A stretch of DNA of 60,636 nucleotides from a virus (taxonomy: Duplodnaviria > Caudoviricetes): IMG/VR virus record IMGVR_UViG_3300019768_000005, positions 1 to 60,636 of that record, one strand, 5' to 3'. This document shows positions 23,921 to 47,733 of this stretch, in pieces (position 1 is the first letter of the stretch; the number at the start of each line of letters is the position of its first letter). The translations under genes and the position numbers were made by a program. The notes under the pieces are model-generated. The model saw nothing but the letters and a program-made list of their open reading frames with translations. It searched no databases and was not told the origin of the DNA.

Positions 23921-24313
23921 ATGAAAGAACAATACGGATGCCAAGCACATTACTGCTATTTAACCGGACCGAGATCAGGGATGTGTACAAACAGCGGGTG
24001 TGCATGCCTTAAAAGCTTACCTACTGGGATCAGGCTTGCTATTGAGCGCAGGATACTTGGGCTTGAGGCTAATGTCAATAAATTGGAAGCTCAGGCCGAA
24101 AAGAATCAAAGAGAATATCAGAAATACGAATTCTGCAAGGCGGTTGATTGTGCTTCTTTGCTGTGCGATCAAAACGGAGTATATCATTGCATACGATCTA
24201 ACAAAATGTGCCAACATACGGCCAAAGAGATACACCACTGGCTGAAAGAAAACGGGTTTAAGATTGTTAAGGAAACTAATCATGAAAAACAAGCTCAGAG
24301 TACTTGTTGTTAA
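23921..24313 (+). CDS. Cys-rich hypothetical protein
   Basis: GGAG RBS. Confidence 0.6.
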   Translation: MKEQYGCQAHYCYLTGPRSGMCTNSGCACLKSLPTGIRLAIERRILGLEANVNKLEAQAEKNQREYQKYEFCKAVDCASLLCDQNGVYHCIRSNKMCQHTAKEIHHWLKENGFKIVKETNHEKQAQSTCC

Positions 24314-24542
24314 CGAAAAAACAGCATTGGATAGCATTCTGAGTGATGTTTTTACTTTCGGCTCTTTATTCGGAGGATTCTTTTTAAATCATTACTTTCT
24401 TGGCGGGTCTATTGTTTTGCATATCATGTTTGCTGTAATGTTTTTGATATTAATATCAAGCCATTATGGCAAAAAAATTAAAACAATGAACTGTGAAGAA
24501 GCATTAGAATATTTGAGTAGATTACGCGACAAAGAGAAATAA
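24282..24542 (+). CDS. Membrane protein
   Basis: Two hydrophobic helices. Confidence 0.6.
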   Translation: MKNKLRVLVVNEKTALDSILSDVFTFGSLFGGFFLNHYFLGGSIVLHIMFAVMFLILISSHYGKKIKTMNCEEALEYLSRLRDKEK

Positions 24543-24563
24543 TTCAACAATTGTTTTTGAATA

Positions 24564-24591
24564 AAGCCCCATGAAATAGCACATGGGGCTT
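24564..24591. terminator. Bidirectional terminator
   Basis: AAGCCCCATG...CATGGGGCTT between convergent arms. Confidence 0.75.
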
Positions 24592-24600
24592 ATATGAATT

Positions 24601-25101
24601 TTATTCATATCCGCGATTGTATTCTTCTGCAAGGAAATTGTTGTAATACGCCATGGCCCCGGGATCTGCGGCAAGTTTTGTAATTTCGCTGATAACGCCG
24701 TGAATCTCTGTAAATTCTTTCTGACATTTGTTTCTGACATAAACCATGTACTGCTTTGTTACCTCTGCGCCACGCTCTGCGGCTGCGGATATCATTGCGT
24801 CAAGATTGGCTAACATTTTTTTTTCTAAATCTACGATGATTTTTAAAGCTGCCGGGTTTGCCGGGCCATGGGTTGGTGCAGGTTGTGCAGAGTAAACCAC
24901 GCCATTTTTGTTTTCATTCTGGATGTAATCAGCGATACAGGCTGACAACTCATACCGTTCCATTTTTTCAGCACGCAAAAAGTCAGCTATGCCGTTATCA
25001 TTTGCCGCGATAAAATCCCTCATACAAGCCTTGTATTGCCCGCCAATCATGATAAGCGAGTTCATTACGGTGTTCAGGTCTTTTAGACATTCTGGGGTCA
25101 T
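24601..25101 (-). CDS. Ferritin-like protein with degenerate ferroxidase centre
   Basis: 166 aa with FtnA-like spacing (LN..N......Y, G.A.FL, LEK, Q, C-terminal G...YN..L); several metal ligands appear replaced. Confidence 0.6.
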   Translation of the reverse strand: MTPECLKDLNTVMNSLIMIGGQYKACMRDFIAANDNGIADFLRAEKMERYELSACIADYIQNENKNGVVYSAQPAPTHGPANPAALKIIVDLEKKMLANLDAMISAAAERGAEVTKQYMVYVRNKCQKEFTEIHGVISEITKLAADPGAMAYYNNFLAEEYNRGYE

Positions 25102-25469
25102 TATATTCTCCCTGTTTTTCTCTCTTCGGTTAGTTTTTTAACATAATCAGTTACAATTGCAGATTTTATAAATGCTTTTTTTGCACAAGCAGGGTTAGCA
25201 CAGACTGCGATGCCTTTTGGGGCAGTATCCTTATTGACCATAATTGAATCCAAGCCACAATTGGGGCACCTAAAAATAAAACCAGACCATTCGCCCATAC
25301 GGTTTGGTATCATGTAGATGTCAGTAACTGTTGTGATTGTCTCGCCAAAATTGTGCGGATCTTCTGTCTTGTCAGGAACTGAATGTACTGGGCAAGGGGC
25401 GGTCATAAACTTCCCGCATGTGCATCCCTCTATTTTTTCCGCAACTTCTGACTTTTCTTTTTCAGACAT
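25101..25469 (-). CDS. Cys-rich zinc-binding protein
   Basis: CTCG..CPVH, CPNCG and CANPAC. Confidence 0.65.
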   Translation of the reverse strand: MSEKEKSEVAEKIEGCTCGKFMTAPCPVHSVPDKTEDPHNFGETITTVTDIYMIPNRMGEWSGFIFRCPNCGLDSIMVNKDTAPKGIAVCANPACAKKAFIKSAIVTDYVKKLTEERKTGRI

Positions 25470-25487
25470 TTAAAAACCTTTTTTGAT

Positions 25488-25509
25488 GGCCCCCTTTTTA
25501 CGGGGGGCC
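25488..25509 (-). terminator. GC hairpin (terminator or processing site)
   Basis: GGCCCCC...GGGGGCC. Confidence 0.45.
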
Positions 25510-25543
25510 GATTTGACTTGATCCCTCAAGACCTTTGCCGTGG

Positions 25544-26437
25544 TTATTTTGCCTTTGCCTTAACGGCTTTTGCTGCCGCTTCTGGCTCTGGTTCCAGGAC
25601 AGGCTCCGGGCAAGCGCCGCATGTTCCACCAGCATTTAAAATGCCTGGGCAGGCGTTACGGCTTACGTTGATCGTGTTATCATTGAGGCACATGTCGATT
25701 TTTGTTCCCGGTTCGTCTCCGCAGCATCGTTCGTCGCAACCTCCGCATACAGCGCCTTGCGCTTTCATCGTTGATACGCAGCTTTTCGGAACTTCAATCG
25801 TCTGGTCCTCATAACACATGATCACTTCTTCACCGGTTTGGCCAGGGCAGTGGTCAGTTCAGGAGGGGCAAGGAGTAGAACATCCAGTAACACAACCACA
25901 TGCAATGCGTGTTTCAAGGGCAGTAATCATTGCGTTTTTCTCGCCGATCTCTTTGTTAGCATCGAGCTTGGCATCAATCGCGGATAGTCTGGCCTGGACT
26001 GAGCCGTTATCAACTGCCTGTTGTTTTGAAAGTTCGGCAAATTTTTCAATTGTTAAGATTTTTGCGTCACAGCAACACTTATCTGCAACTCTGGCGTTAT
26101 TTGCGATTTCACGCTCGATATCTCTCAGCCGGTCACCGTTTCTAAGTTCAGCCTGAAACTGACCGTCTTTGATTGAATCGAACCGAAGGATGTTTCTTGT
26201 TTCGGAATTCTGGTCGCTGATGCGGTCAAGGTTTGCACCAAGACCAGCCTCAAGGCAACGAGTCTCTGCTTTTGTTACTTCATTGTTGCGATTGATTCTA
26301 ACAGCGTTTGATCCCATATCGGCGAAAGGGGAACCATAGTAACCACCACCCCACTGACCGCCGCCACGACCACCAAAACCACCACCGCTCATTGCTGCTG
26401 TAAGTACCGCATCGCTTGTGCTAAAGCCATTATCCAT
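25544..26437 (-). CDS. Gly-rich/coiled-coil/Cys-rich protein, 297 aa if the TGA at 25859-25861 is read through; candidate selenoprotein (CxxU)
   Basis: ORFs 25859..26437 and 25544..25825 share a frame, linked by TGA plus 11 sense codons; CPS*TDHC aligns with the repeat CGGCDERC. Confidence 0.7.
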
Positions 26438-26474
26438 GTTTTTTGCTCCTTGTGTGATGGAGCATAAAAGAAAA

Positions 26475-26542
26475 GCCCCATCAAGTAAAATATACTCAAT
26501 GGGGCCATGTGGCGCAACTGAATGAAGTTAGGGCGGCAACTG
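26475..26542 (-). promoter_or_regulatory. Promoter overlapping a terminator hairpin, with a direct repeat
   Basis: TTGCGC-17-TATATT within a GCCCCAT..ATGGGGC hairpin; GCAACTG repeated 22 bp apart. Confidence 0.5.
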
Positions 26543-26581
26543 TTTAATATGCGGGCCTGTAAATAATTATATTATATACAG

Positions 26582-26788
26582 CTAAACAGGGCTTTTGTAA
26601 ACACGTTTTATTCTTTCAAGGCTGCTTTTTATCAATTTCATGCCACGTTTTAGAGATGTGTTGGTTTCTTTTAGGCTTTTAGAGCCTTCAATACCAGGTA
26701 TTGTAGTACCTATCCCGCGGTCTATAGCTTCGATGAAACAGTTTAATTTTTCTTCTATACGTGACACCCTGGATTTTAAATCCGTCAT
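26582..26788 (-). CDS. Small coiled-coil protein
   Basis: GAGGA RBS before MTDLKSRVSRIEEK. Confidence 0.55.
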   Translation of the reverse strand: MTDLKSRVSRIEEKLNCFIEAIDRGIGTTIPGIEGSKSLKETNTSLKRGMKLIKSSLERIKRVYKSPV

Positions 26789-26811
26789 AAGATACACTGT
26801 CCTCAAAATTA

Positions 26812-27381
26812 TTATTGCGTTTTATTAATATATTCTTCTATGTGCGTCAAGAGATGATCTTTCATTCGTCCAAAAACATCCCACCACTTTTTATCCCTTG
26901 GCAAAACAACAACTTTGGTTATTCTGTGCACAAACCGGCTCCATCCTATTTTGACCACAACATCATCATCATCTATAAATATAACAGTTTTATGGTTTTC
27001 TTTTGTATCTGTAAAGCCCATTGATGGGCAAAAAGCAACACAATATTCTGCGCATAAAAGTTCTTGCAAATAAATCCCAGTCGGGCCTGATTTTGAATGA
27101 CATGTTATTAATAATGGCATTCCTGGAGTCCGGATAAAAGTCTTTAATATCCTTTGTGCTGAAACATAAGACCCGTATTTAACACCATCTTTTTGCAAAA
27201 ACAGGAAGTTCCAAAACCAATCAATTATGCCGTTTGTGCCAGGTATTGCTAAAACTTGTAATGCCTCTTTATTATACTCCGTTTTATATACCGACCATTG
27301 CGTGCTACCGACTGAATTTGATGGGATTTTATAGGCTTTCTGCAAAAAGTCGACTGATATTTTGTATAATTCTTTATTCAT
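26812..27381 (-). CDS. Lipase class 3-like alpha/beta hydrolase
   Basis: IPGT...DW..N, nucleophile elbow TCHSKSG, DDDVV, C-terminal DH. Confidence 0.7.
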   Translation of the reverse strand: MNKELYKISVDFLQKAYKIPSNSVGSTQWSVYKTEYNKEALQVLAIPGTNGIIDWFWNFLFLQKDGVKYGSYVSAQRILKTFIRTPGMPLLITCHSKSGPTGIYLQELLCAEYCVAFCPSMGFTDTKENHKTVIFIDDDDVVVKIGWSRFVHRITKVVVLPRDKKWWDVFGRMKDHLLTHIEEYINKTQ

Positions 27382-27788
27382 AAGTCACCTGATAATAAAT
27401 AAGTTTTTTCTGCAATAAAACCACGTTTAGGACTCCACAATGAGAAGGGAGAGTTTCTGCAATCAATGTGCAGCCACGATATATCAACTTCAAGAAACGA
27501 AATATAAGGAAAGTCCTGTTTGTTGTTTATTATGTGCATCCTTATTTCCTCTGGATCATATTTGTCAGAATGAAGATCCAGAGCCCTCCCAAATTTATGC
27601 TGAGATGTTTTAGATCCGGTTGTTCTGAAACCACACTGCGTAAGCCCACGGCCGTTAACCCACAAAGGTCCAAATAAATATCTCAAATTATCCGCAGAAA
27701 TCAAGATACGGTCATCAAAATATTTCCAGCCTTTGGGGAAGTTTTTTGGGAAGCATTCATTTAAATTAAAATATTTAGGTTTATACAT
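27378..27788 (-). CDS. Endolysin, peptidase M15 family
   Basis: GFR, SQHKFGRALD and WLHID zinc-peptidase motifs. Confidence 0.85.
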   Translation of the reverse strand: MYKPKYFNLNECFPKNFPKGWKYFDDRILISADNLRYLFGPLWVNGRGLTQCGFRTTGSKTSQHKFGRALDLHSDKYDPEEIRMHIINNKQDFPYISFLEVDISWLHIDCRNSPFSLWSPKRGFIAEKTYLLSGDL

Positions 27789-46929: not shown

Positions 46930-47733
46930 TCACCCAACAATCGCAACCGTATAGAACAGATCCATAAAGGTATCTTCGTACCAGTGCGGCTGTGTTTCCC
47001 GTGGGTTGCTCGGACTTGTGTCGTTCTGGCCGTATTTCAGGCCGTATTCTGTGATCGAATTGTACTTCTTGATCTGGCCCTTGTACCCGGTCCTTGTTTT
47101 GACTTCCAGGATTCCATTCCCAATCAAAAGTCTATTAAAAACCCGAGCGCTGATCCCACACTCATTCTTTTTAAGCAGATCCGTGGCCGAGAACGTTGCC
47201 CTTACATTCTCTACGTATTCGGGCAGCATGGCGGTAGACACTCAAATTTCACAATGCAACTTTTTAGCGCACCCAAGATATGACACATCGCTCATTTTTA
47301 AATGGTTCTTTAAGTGGCCCAGGGCAACATACCCAATATCAAGCTGCTCTTTTTTGTCTGATGGGATTGGCAAAGATTTGGCCTGTTTTTCCATGAGAAG
47401 GAAATAATCTCTGGCCTCATTCCCACGGGCTGTTTGCTCAGCCATTGAAACTTTCTTCGCCGTGTCTTGGGTCAAGGCATAGTCTTTTCGGTTATGCCCT
47501 CCGCGACCTGTTTGCTTGACAGAATTATCAAGCAAAATAAAGTCCTGGTTTTCTTGAAAAAATGGATTCTCAATCACCTTTAACTTTACCCAGTTTGCAA
47601 ATTCCTGCTTACTACCAAGGAAAGAATGCAGCTCCCTGGCATCAACAGAATTGACAGACTCTTCCCCGATAGTCGCTGATTTGATTTTTACTTGATTTGA
47701 AATTGATGTTGTGGTATTACTTTGGATAGTCAT
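46930..47733 (-). CDS. AntA/AntB antirepressor split by an in-frame TGA (47242-47244)
   Basis: VDARELHSFL..GGHNRKDY N-domain; abutting same-frame ORF supplies the antirepressor C-domain (SATDLL..FNRLL..ETQPHWY). Confidence 0.8.

Follow-up and report, generated by a model that had tools for sequence, protein, structure and literature searches.

Comparison of related phage loci points to a tailed-phage protein, gA, that is apparently made both in a short form and, by read-through of its UGA stop codon, in a longer form carrying the extension gB. Taking as the criterion for read-through that in-frame coding sequence past the stop stays open, we judge from these comparisons that selection has kept such sequence past the gA TGA. 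We read gA and gB, together with the downstream genes gC and gD, as an accessory cassette for a rod with a UGA read-through tip, which would form an extracellular fiber attended by metal/redox helper proteins, and we put the probability of this joint reading at about one half.

The cassette and its rod-like protein

The window, that is, the whole stretch of 60,636 nucleotides analyzed, is a complete 60.6-kb tailed phage, and the cassette lies at the 3' end of its late block of tail fiber and lysis genes. The genes follow one another on the minus strand in the order gA, gB, gC, gD, with hairpins at both ends of the set (Table 1), and the GC content of the cassette is 0.461 versus 0.405 for the phage. 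The gC stop overlaps the gD start by 1 base. A blastn search of the cassette against phage records gave no matches, and literature searches on phage-encoded ferritin/EncFtn and on Shewanella phage 1/44 turned up nothing about the gene set.

The first-pass annotation had placed a terminator-embedded promoter and a GCAACTG direct repeat ahead of the set and a terminator after the ferritin-like gene. The last of these agrees with the stable hairpin beyond gD. The terminator part of the first also stood, as the hairpin ahead of gA is stable (-22 kcal/mol, z = -4.25, equaled by 0 of 200 shuffles) and carries a U-run, while the promoter part did not: a scan of positions 24300-27000 gave 6 promoter-like matches versus 5.7 in shuffles, none of them correctly placed upstream of gA. 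Both copies of GCAACTG are there, but the window has 6 occurrences of this 7-mer where 6.97 are expected; this is chance frequency and shows no significance for the repeat. The two end hairpins have AAAGCCCCAT in common. The terminator scan gave the hairpin between gB and gC on the plus strand only, and the one beyond gD was absent from its list.

Table 1. Coordinates of the cassette genes and of the elements around them
Feature	Position	Strand	Description
GCAACTG pair	26514-26520 and 26536-26542 (span 26514..26542)	.	Both copies present
Hairpin with U-run (UUUUCUUUU)	26474..26506	-	From terminator scan; terminator-like, just 5' of the gA ribosome-binding site
gA, 192 codons	25862..26437 (from 25859 with stop)	-	Gly-rich head, long helix, Cys-rich tail
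gA TGA stop, proposed read-through site	25859..25861	-	Context ccctccTGAact
gB, in-frame extension, 104 codons	25547..25858	-	Same frame as gA, open from the TGA to the TAA at 25544-25546
GC-rich hairpin between gB and gC	25488..25509	-	z = -3.04, stretch -20.6 kcal/mol; no U-run
gC, 122 aa	25101..25469	-	N-terminal CxC...PCPxH and zinc-ribbon CPxCG...CxxC
gD, 166 aa	24601..25101	-	Ferritin homolog: four-helix bundle and short fifth helix
Hairpin followed by UUUAUUC	24564..24591	-	Cassette end, between convergent genes; -17.7 kcal/mol, z = -3.61

The description of gA as a Gly-rich CCC protein was confirmed. Its head, rich in Gly and aromatic residues, is disordered at residues ~19-40, a single continuous helix was predicted for residues 41-180 (AF2, pLDDT 72, pTM 0.24) with an invariant CCC inside it at residues 121-123, and the C terminus is Cys-rich, the last residues being ACGCVTGCSTPCPS. 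As modeled, gA is a rod in which a flexible, Gly-rich head leads into a helix of ~140 residues that bears CCC at mid-length and ends in a Cys-rich cap. A single heptad register was tried for the helix and rejected, the best fit accounting for 0.5 of the a/d positions; because this fit is weak, we name no oligomeric state for gA. The protein had no match in Pfam or PHROG and no signal peptide, and its profile hit nothing significant among solved structures (best E, 0.082). In the ESM Atlas, gA and gC matched nothing but unnamed clusters of viral or bacterial proteins and zinc ribbons of a generic kind.

Fifty relatives of gA were found, and a fused gA-gB query against 1.84 billion representatives gave 132 matches, most of them to the gA part. 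A scan of genome contigs with the gA alignment gave 55 pattern matches, none of which was confirmed. The survey described below covers 47 non-redundant gA loci, in which B, C, and D denote genes of the gB, gC, and gD types and E an EncFtn-like gene.

The surroundings of gA suggest one function that we consider quite improbable, that of a lysis accessory in which gA, with its helix of ~21 nm, would disrupt the envelope together with the Pro-rich gB, like a spanin pair. In the window the cassette adjoins an endolysin gene (27378-27788, phrog_894, E = 1.1e-14), lysis-type genes, identified by ORF reading, adjoin it in four further loci (L002, L005, L007, and L010), and spanins are likewise helical, Cys-linked, and Pro-rich. 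However, sequence reading revealed neither a transmembrane segment nor a lipobox in gA or gB, the gA gene of Shewanella phage 1/44 (S144_28) lies among head genes on the opposite strand, and such a model leaves no role for the ferritin and the zinc ribbon.

Open coding sequence past the gA stop codon

The letters of the TGA codon were identical in the contigs of runs X1, X4, and X5, with no other letters seen. A TGA terminates gA in 21 loci, and in every one of them the frame continues without a stop for 23 to 163 further codons (median, 89), versus 0 to 40 codons (median, 9) in the 24 loci with TAA or TAG; the difference in extension length, tested on the 41 complete rows only, was significant (Mann-Whitney p = 6.6e-8). 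The extension of S144_28, the gA of Shewanella phage 1/44, is 30 codons long. On the gA tree the stop type changes 13 times, no fewer than in shuffles, and at least 6 of the changes are forced by well-supported branches. Given this scatter, the extension pattern is not the inheritance of one clade. Past the stop codon, B continues the gA frame without interruption in 9 of 10 TGA loci versus none of 9 TAA/TAG loci (Fisher p = 1.2e-4), L007 being the sole TGA locus with B out of frame.

Conserved residues of gB sit, by their position in the sequence, where only read-through could translate them. The extension in the window consists of a conserved linker, CPGQTGEEV, two Cys-rich modules of ~30 residues (MCYEDQTIEV...CGGC and MCLNDNTINV...CGAC), and a Pro/Glu/Ala/Lys tail, and the stretch from the TGA to the conserved CPGQTGE segment contains no start codon. 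In the window and in two other loci (L021 and L023) the motif CP(G/D)QTG(E/D)xV comes after the TGA but ahead of the first start codon, with synonymous differences, and a stand-alone B, P0058, has the same segment inside its ORF. In L028, L029, and L031 it is the conserved CCP... part of B that lies upstream of the first Met. The extensions of L001, L008, L050, and L051 finish in the motif K(K)Q(G)GF(L/F)N at their C termini. In one relative, P0134 (353 aa), gA and the extension form an unbroken protein with W where its kin have TGA, although this W was read from the protein, whose source may have translated TGA by another code; no locus encoding it was found in viral contigs.

The open frames and the conserved residues ahead of any start point to programmed UGA read-through yielding a rod-plus-tip fusion. 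Elsewhere in the phage TGA is an ordinary stop, which ends 22 of 96 ORFs with a median extension of ~7. Recoding of TGA throughout the genome was rejected, as code 11 gives unbroken ORFs of 1775, 909, and 786 aa, the extensions of the TGA-ended ORFs are mostly short, and no tRNA gene was found in the window. In the same connection, a cruder count, of internal TGA codons in frames bounded by TAA or TAG, did not separate TGA-type from TAA/TAG-type loci. Regarding the context of the codon, a U at position +4 is reported, in the accessible part of the source, to strengthen termination (PMC5289835). It follows 3 of 21 TGA codons, that of L007 among them, versus 10 of 24 TAA/TAG codons, a difference of marginal significance (p = 0.055).

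The earlier description of the region as a CxxU protein was right in that the in-frame TGA is real and gB continues in the same frame; its selenol was not upheld. On that account the TGA would encode Sec within a CPS-U redox motif of a single 297-residue selenoprotein, and it is consistent with the recoded stop always being TGA, never TAA or TAG, and with the Cys-rich stretch around the TGA in the window and in L006, L021, L023, and L031. We nevertheless regard it as very improbable. The 8 weak Rfam matches include no SECIS family, and RNA structure 3' of the TGA shows no excess over shuffles (z = -0.16 in the window; median z = -0.35 over the 21 TGA loci, below the structure at TAA/TAG loci). 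Moreover, Gly codons within a tail rich in Gly, His, and Arg precede the TGA in 10 of the 21 loci, a Cys codon stands at this position in none of the 24 non-TGA loci, all of which have TAA or TAG, and the sole continuous relative, P0134, has W there.

An unlikely explanation is that there is no recoding at all, gA and gB being separate genes, with the TGA a relic of repeated splitting of a fused gene (TGG or TGY to TGA) or gB translated by re-initiation. TGA is indeed one mutation away from the Trp and Cys codons, and gB has candidate starts of its own past the linker, a GTG at 25825 and an ATG at 25819, the listed gB ORF spanning 25544-25825 with its TAA stop at 25544-25546. Public gene calls also list B alone (P0051, P0061, and P0067), and at the TAA/TAG loci, as in L007, B clearly stands as a gene of its own. 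The explanation should be weighed, however, against the rarity of fused forms with a sense codon, seen in none of the 47 loci and in 1 of the 132 representative matches, and against an open frame kept in 9 of the 10 TGA loci despite gA identities of ~40-60% and many switches of the stop. It also has to contend with conserved residues, differing synonymously, that precede any start codon, and with the B module of L028, which has no start codon of its own that would make it long enough for listing.

Zinc-ribbon and ferritin-type partners

The gC cysteines C68, C71, C90, and C95 never vary among the aligned relatives (14 of 14). Database matches of gC were to zinc ribbons and weak only; its similarity to the rubrerythrin Cys4 domain was not significant (E = 0.56), and its profile gave nothing significant against solved structures (best E, 0.042).

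The claim of a degenerate ferritin at the end of the set was substantiated on both counts, fold and degeneracy. gD exceeded the cut-off of Pfam Ferritin PF00210 narrowly (24.8 versus 24.5 bits) and its relatives more clearly (30.5 and 45.5 bits), and the family profile matched solved ferritins over positions 1-158 (E = 7.7e-15). The AF2 model (pLDDT 89.9, pTM 0.84) has five helices, at 3-32, 36-63, 83-109, 113-143, and 147-162, and Foldseek aligned it to the bacterial ferritins 3qz3, 2x17, and 1eum with TM scores of 0.86-0.87. In the numbering of E. coli FtnA, the di-iron ferroxidase ligands are E17, E50, H53, E94, and E130. All 8 family members have L, M, or F at the E17 position, an invariant Arg at E50, and a residue other than His at H53; E94 and E130 are retained in 7 of 8 and a Tyr in 8 of 8. 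Judged by these alignments, gD is a true ferritin homolog lacking the ferroxidase site, with three of the five ligands replaced. It shares with prokaryotic non-heme ferritin (Ftn; e.g., PDB 1z4a, 3qz3, and 1eum) full-length homology, the five-helix fold, the Tyr, and two Glu ligands, and differs in the loss of the A-helix Glu, the B-helix Glu, and the His. L-chain ferritins are ferroxidase-inactive, and gD resembles them in its lost ferroxidase ligands.

The proposed co-occurrence of CCC proteins with ferritin-like genes was found among the 47 gA loci: 16 have gC downstream of gA, of which 10 also have a ferritin-type gene, full-length or EncFtn-like. A lack of co-occurrence, or of a ferritin-like fold for 24601..25101, would have refuted the first-pass annotation, and neither was observed. 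Two of the six gC-bearing loci with neither D nor E end at a contig edge. The EncFtn-like half-ferritin, of 64-73 aa, occurs in six relatives. Two E proteins passed the Pfam EncFtn-like cut-off of 27 bits (32.8 and 28.0) and a third, at 21.7, fell below it; E-type relatives scored 23.5 bits against Rubrerythrin (cut-off, 22.8), and the E...ExxH pattern is retained by eye. Among the 32 loci with at least 1200 nt downstream, B was present in 12, C in 12, D or E in 8, and P, an unrelated non-metal partner, in 13, with none of these in 6; C and P never occurred together in this set. P was paired with gA in 16 of the 37 loci having at least 600 nt downstream, and its profile gave nothing significant against solved structures (best E, 5.4).

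These partners could argue for a metal or oxidative-stress moron, in which the proteins would bind metals or destroy peroxide and so protect the infected cell, with gC and gD/E amounting to a split rubrerythrin. The homology of gD to ferritins, the ligand pattern and model matches of the E-type partners, the rubredoxin-like four-Cys set of gC, and the hairpin-bracketed, GC-richer cassette agree with such a role, and rubrerythrin/EncFtn likewise combines a ferritin-superfamily unit with an adjacent Cys4 unit of the zinc-ribbon or rubredoxin-like kind. Here, however, they are two separate proteins, gD has lost di-iron ligands in all family members, and the gC match is not significant. A complex prediction for gD with gC, made without control runs, scored 0.00 and speaks neither for nor against their association. 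The dead ferroxidase site, and partner P in 16 of 37 loci, make an oxygen- or metal-stress role less likely. As gA stands with P or by itself in 19 of the 32 assessable loci, and modules of the B type are found in secreted proteins, we hold this role to be doubtful.

A putative fiber with fused or docked tips

Repeats of the gB type were found in P0164, the N terminus of which, judged by eye, resembles a signal peptide. They also occur in proteins of 1401-2317 aa, including one with Cadherin-like and Glucodextran_B domains. We infer that the gB modules are of a type found as tandem repeats in secreted or surface proteins of bacteria. The gB of L007 matched Pfam Collagen (42.6 bits), and in seven of the nine TAA/TAG loci the separate B carries an extra N-terminal Cys-rich module (CCxxPVCL...). 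Tips in the fused arrangement would include Cys-knot modules, collagen-like stretches, and others.

In the read-through model, most ribosomes would stop at the UGA and release the short rod, and a minority would read it, most likely by near-cognate decoding, e.g., by tRNA-Trp, adding the gB tip. gA would then act as a socket for exchangeable tips, the tip of relatives being a collagen-like stretch or another domain. At TAA/TAG loci the CCxxPVCL... module of the separate gB probably docks onto gA in place of the covalent link. The product may be an extracellular fiber, carried by the virion or set free when the cell lyses, with its cysteines stapling it outside the cell, and gC and gD, or the EncFtn-like half-ferritin of other loci, would serve it as cytoplasmic metal/redox helpers. 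Gene order by itself suggests the tie of gC and gD to gA and gB, and a fiber with metal/redox helper proteins is suggested as the function of the gene set with low confidence. More tentatively, at somewhat less than even odds, the loci may form a family of UGA-socket rods that has switched repeatedly between a fused tip and a separate docked subunit, the cysteine-stapled appendage or fiber being matured by the zinc ribbon together with a dead ferritin or EncFtn-like protein.

The closest parallel is A1 of the ssRNA phage Q-beta, where a leaky UGA in the gene of an abundant short protein gives a minority form with an in-frame C-terminal extension. By analogy, gA would share the leaky-UGA design, in which a small share of an assembling protein is made in extended form; it differs in belonging to a dsDNA tailed phage, in not being a capsid protein, in its variable extension, and in being known from genes alone. 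T7 makes 10A and 10B by programmed frameshift, the long form gaining a C-terminal part. Two forms in a fixed ratio from one start, the long one with a C-terminal addition, would also relate gA to this pair and to G/GT of lambda, but those systems use a -1 frameshift at slippery sites, whereas gA and gB share one frame with the TGA alone between them. For lambda G/GT, the accessible part of a recoding review reports a programmed frameshift giving two forms from one start, and it describes frameshifting for dsDNA phages (PMC5009743). In a search of the literature that was not exhaustive and covered sources in part, no case of stop-codon read-through in a dsDNA phage was found. In design, T4 fibritin and the cystine knots of collagen are also similar, with a helical rod, terminal Cys clusters, and, in gA relatives, a collagen-like partner, although gA has no sequence or fold match to them.

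Read-through that gives a minor extended structural protein is textbook knowledge for ssRNA phages and many eukaryotic viruses. In tailed dsDNA phages, as far as found in the accessible part of the review, the recoding described consists of frameshifts (PMC5009743). The gA family offers 21 independent natural TGA cases, with 24 TAA/TAG relatives as built-in negative controls, and a cultured member, Shewanella phage 1/44, in which the read-through claim is directly testable. Because gene callers split or truncate gA-gB genes, the tips are annotated as orphan peptides. The set also adds a phage-borne ferritin without a ferroxidase site and shows that a zinc ribbon and a ferritin-type protein recur as a pair, which had gone unnoticed. 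If the proposed reading is true, the family would represent a cysteine-stapled appendage or extracellular fiber of a kind previously undescribed.

Setting of the cassette

The window (60,636 bases) is a complete virus record, in which portal, head, tail and tail-fibre genes on the minus strand are followed by the endolysin gene, two small ORFs, a strong hairpin with a U-run and then gA (Cys-bearing rod), gB (Cys-rich, putative tip), gC (zinc ribbon) and gD (ferritin homologue). A second hairpin lies between gB and gC, and a third, with a U-rich run, at the cassette end. The outer hairpins match at 14 of 16 bases and have the stretch AAAGCCCCAT in common. The GC content is 0.461 for the cassette and 0.494 for gA-gB versus 0.405 for the window. 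Judged from its sequence, the cassette looks as though a single terminator had been copied to either side of an insertion. The GCAACTG repeat described by the first-pass annotation is present, but this 7-mer occurs only at chance frequency, and the promoter proposed there was not borne out, promoter-like matches being no commoner than in shuffles.

For a 74-aa ORF directly upstream of the cassette, a homologue occupies the same place, the endolysin-gA gap, in locus L007 (36% identity, E 5.6e-11), and none was found in the other 13 viral loci. A 189-aa ORF, which overlaps the endolysin gene stop to start, resembles an esterase/lipase family of PHROG only weakly (E 0.011). The runs that contain the stretch are labelled microbial mat metagenomes, and a host search of 185,579 species genomes gave no match.

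Positions of the cassette genes and associated features
Feature	Position	Strand	Remark
Endolysin gene	27378-27788	minus	phrog_894, E 1.1e-14
189-aa ORF	26812-27381	minus	between endolysin gene and cassette
74-aa ORF	26582-26806	minus	
Hairpin with U-run	26474-26506		upstream of gA
Outer hairpins, matched bases	24563-24578, 26472-26487		
gA	25859-26437	minus	192 aa
gB	25544-25825 (as listed)	minus	
gC	25101-25469	minus	122 aa
gD	24601-25101	minus	166 aa
Second in-frame TGA pair	46930-47733	minus	163-aa and 103-aa ORFs
Ferritin-type gene and gA in L024	3317-4477 (L024)		order D-A
P (alternative gA partner)	downstream of gA		L001/L009, L011, L012, L015, L034, L036, L038, L039, L041-L044, L046-L050, L053

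The TGA codon between gA and gB

gA ends in TGA, with the same letters in contigs from two other runs, and gB lies beyond it in the same frame. Across the gA loci, an open in-frame extension of 23 to 163 codons (median 89) follows gA in all 21 TGA loci, whereas in the 24 TAA/TAG loci it measures 0 to 40 codons (median 9; Mann-Whitney p = 6.6e-8 for 41 complete rows). Since TGA and TAA/TAG loci are interspersed on the gA tree, with 13 changes of stop type (no fewer than in label shuffles), at least 6 of them forced by well-supported branches, the association does not come from a single ancestor. gB follows in frame with no stop between in 9 of 10 TGA loci versus 0 of 9 TAA/TAG loci (Fisher p = 1.2e-4), the exception being L007, where gB is not in the open frame and a T follows the TGA.

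The rival account, in which gA and gB are separate proteins made without recoding, would suit L007 and the TAA/TAG loci, and has to accommodate several conserved segments lying ahead of any start codon. In L028, L029 and L031 the module's CCP... start comes before the first Met. In the window, L021 and L023 the segment CP(G/D)QTG(E/D)xV follows the TGA and ends before any possible start codon, with synonymous differences among the three; P0058, a stand-alone gB, has this segment within its ORF. The extensions of L001, L008, L050 and L051 end in a K(K)Q(G)GF(L/F)N motif, and those of L043 and L048, long and conserved (138 codons), have 90 identical codons, 26 synonymous and 22 non-synonymous differences. 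We consider programmed UGA read-through the probable, and best, reading of the TGA data, at roughly three chances in four. Leaky decoding would yield the short rod as the majority form and rod-plus-tip (gA-gB) as the minority form, much as Q-beta makes its A1 protein. An extra N-terminal Cys-rich module (CCxxPVCL...EEFKEQM...) was present in 7 of 9 stand-alone gB proteins after a TAA/TAG gA versus 0 of 11 TGA-linked ones (p = 4.6e-4, module classed by eye). This regularity supports a physical gA-gB link, and a docking module replacing the covalent link would look like this one.

Two other decodings of the TGA were considered. The first-pass annotation had taken it for the selenocysteine of a CxxU motif. 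No SECIS match was found, RNA structure 3' of the TGA was not in excess either in the window or in the set of 21 TGA loci, where there was if anything less of it than in the TAA/TAG loci, many gA TGAs stand in Gly-rich contexts, and relatives carry stops at this position, not Cys codons; a gA-gB selenoprotein is thus not supported. P0134, a continuous relative known here from its protein sequence alone, has W exactly at its kin's TGA position. Genome-wide recoding is excluded, because code 11 leaves very long ORFs unbroken, TGA is an ordinary stop (ending 22 of 96 ORFs, with mostly short extensions) and the window holds no tRNA genes.

Elsewhere in the window, TGA is also the stop of a 163-aa ORF whose N-domain is of the AntA/anti-repressor type (phrog_5817, E 5.6e-31; Pfam AntA, E 7e-19). 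Directly after it, in the same frame, comes a 103-aa ORF that aligns with the C-terminal portion of a regulator family (phrog_129, positions 179-267 of 273). The pair may represent another case of read-through or a gene split by a nonsense mutation, or may have arisen by chance.

The cassette proteins and their possible roles

gA has no family in Pfam or PHROG, and none of its 50 relatives in a 5.8-billion-protein set bears a functional name; the one named match, a 'hypothetical protein' of Shewanella phage 1/44, is the sole one among deposited phage records. A fused gA-gB query against 1.84 billion representatives gave 132 matches, mostly to the gA part. The gA model (AF2, 26 relatives; pLDDT 72, pTM 0.24) has a disordered Gly-rich head and a single continuous helix (41-180); E97, R99, D102, C121 and C122 are invariant and C123 nearly so. 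gB consists of two copies of a Cys-rich module of ~30 residues, which has no Pfam family, and a Pro/Glu/Ala/Lys tail. In the gB of L007 the module stands behind collagen-like repeats (Pfam Collagen, 42.6 bits). The module (C-x-x-G-x-T-I-x-V ... A-H-L-x-H-G-D-x-x-G-x-C and variants) is also a repeat unit of very large bacterial proteins, which are 1401-2317 aa long, show 6 to 12 matched stretches and in one case carry Cadherin-like and Glucodextran_B domains. The repeat carriers were P0107, P0118, P0162, P0167 and the small, secreted-looking P0164 (211 aa, three copies, N-terminus resembling a signal peptide by eye).

gC shows a zinc-ribbon pattern of four invariant Cys, with an N-terminal CxC...PCPxH motif in most members, and at best weak generic zinc-ribbon matches to known proteins. 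By sequence and predicted fold, gD is a genuine ferritin homologue: it matches Pfam at threshold, its family profile matches solved ferritins over the full length (E 7.7e-15), and its AF2 model (pLDDT 89.9) gave TM 0.86-0.87 with bacterial ferritins in Foldseek. The ligands were read from the profile alignment to solved ferritins against the eight-member family alignment, with the ligand identities of E. coli FtnA as reference. The A-helix Glu, B-helix Glu (an invariant Arg here) and His are replaced in all eight members, with the Tyr and two other Glu mostly retained; 'degenerate ferritin', as first proposed, is therefore correct.

Recurrence of the genes, a check set beforehand, was determined in 14 viral and 37 metagenome loci with ORFs classed by iterated HMMs (47 after six duplicates were dropped). 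The 32 assessable loci, whose sequence reaches 1200 nt or more past gA, contained gB-type genes in 12, gC in 12, ferritin-type genes in 8, P in 13 and nothing recognisable in 6; gC and P were together in none. A ferritin-type gene directly adjoins gC in 10 of 16 gC loci, so the genes do recur together and refutation by non-co-occurrence fails; two of the other six are cut at the contig end. The neighbour is a gD-like full ferritin in the window, L006, L007 and L025, or a 64-73-aa protein matching Pfam EncFtn-like in L003, L005, L013, L021, L023 and L026. The ferritin link is robust, in two architectures. In L024, the ferritin-type gene immediately precedes gA instead of following gC, and the contig stops 42 nt past gA. 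P (about 97-142 aa, ~126) is an unrelated partner; its invariant residues include D32, G36, D43, E65, P79 and R97 (alignment A4). Pfam gave no match for the one member run, nor did P match any PDB sequence.

gC and gD or its EncFtn-like counterpart may act as cytoplasmic metal or redox helpers, a role we propose with low confidence. A rival reading, a moron for metal or peroxide protection, a split rubrerythrin included, would draw on the same zinc-ribbon and ferritin genes, and would have to work with the replaced di-iron ligands; another rival, a lysis accessory, would suit the neighbouring endolysin gene, and would leave the ferritin link to be accounted for. For gA/gB we tentatively favour an extracellular fibre, carried on the virion or freed at lysis, on account of the signal-less rod with its Cys clusters, the tips that resemble secreted or surface protein types or are collagen-like, the short-form/long-form design typical of assembling structures, and the place of the cassette, where the tail-fibre and lysis block ends.
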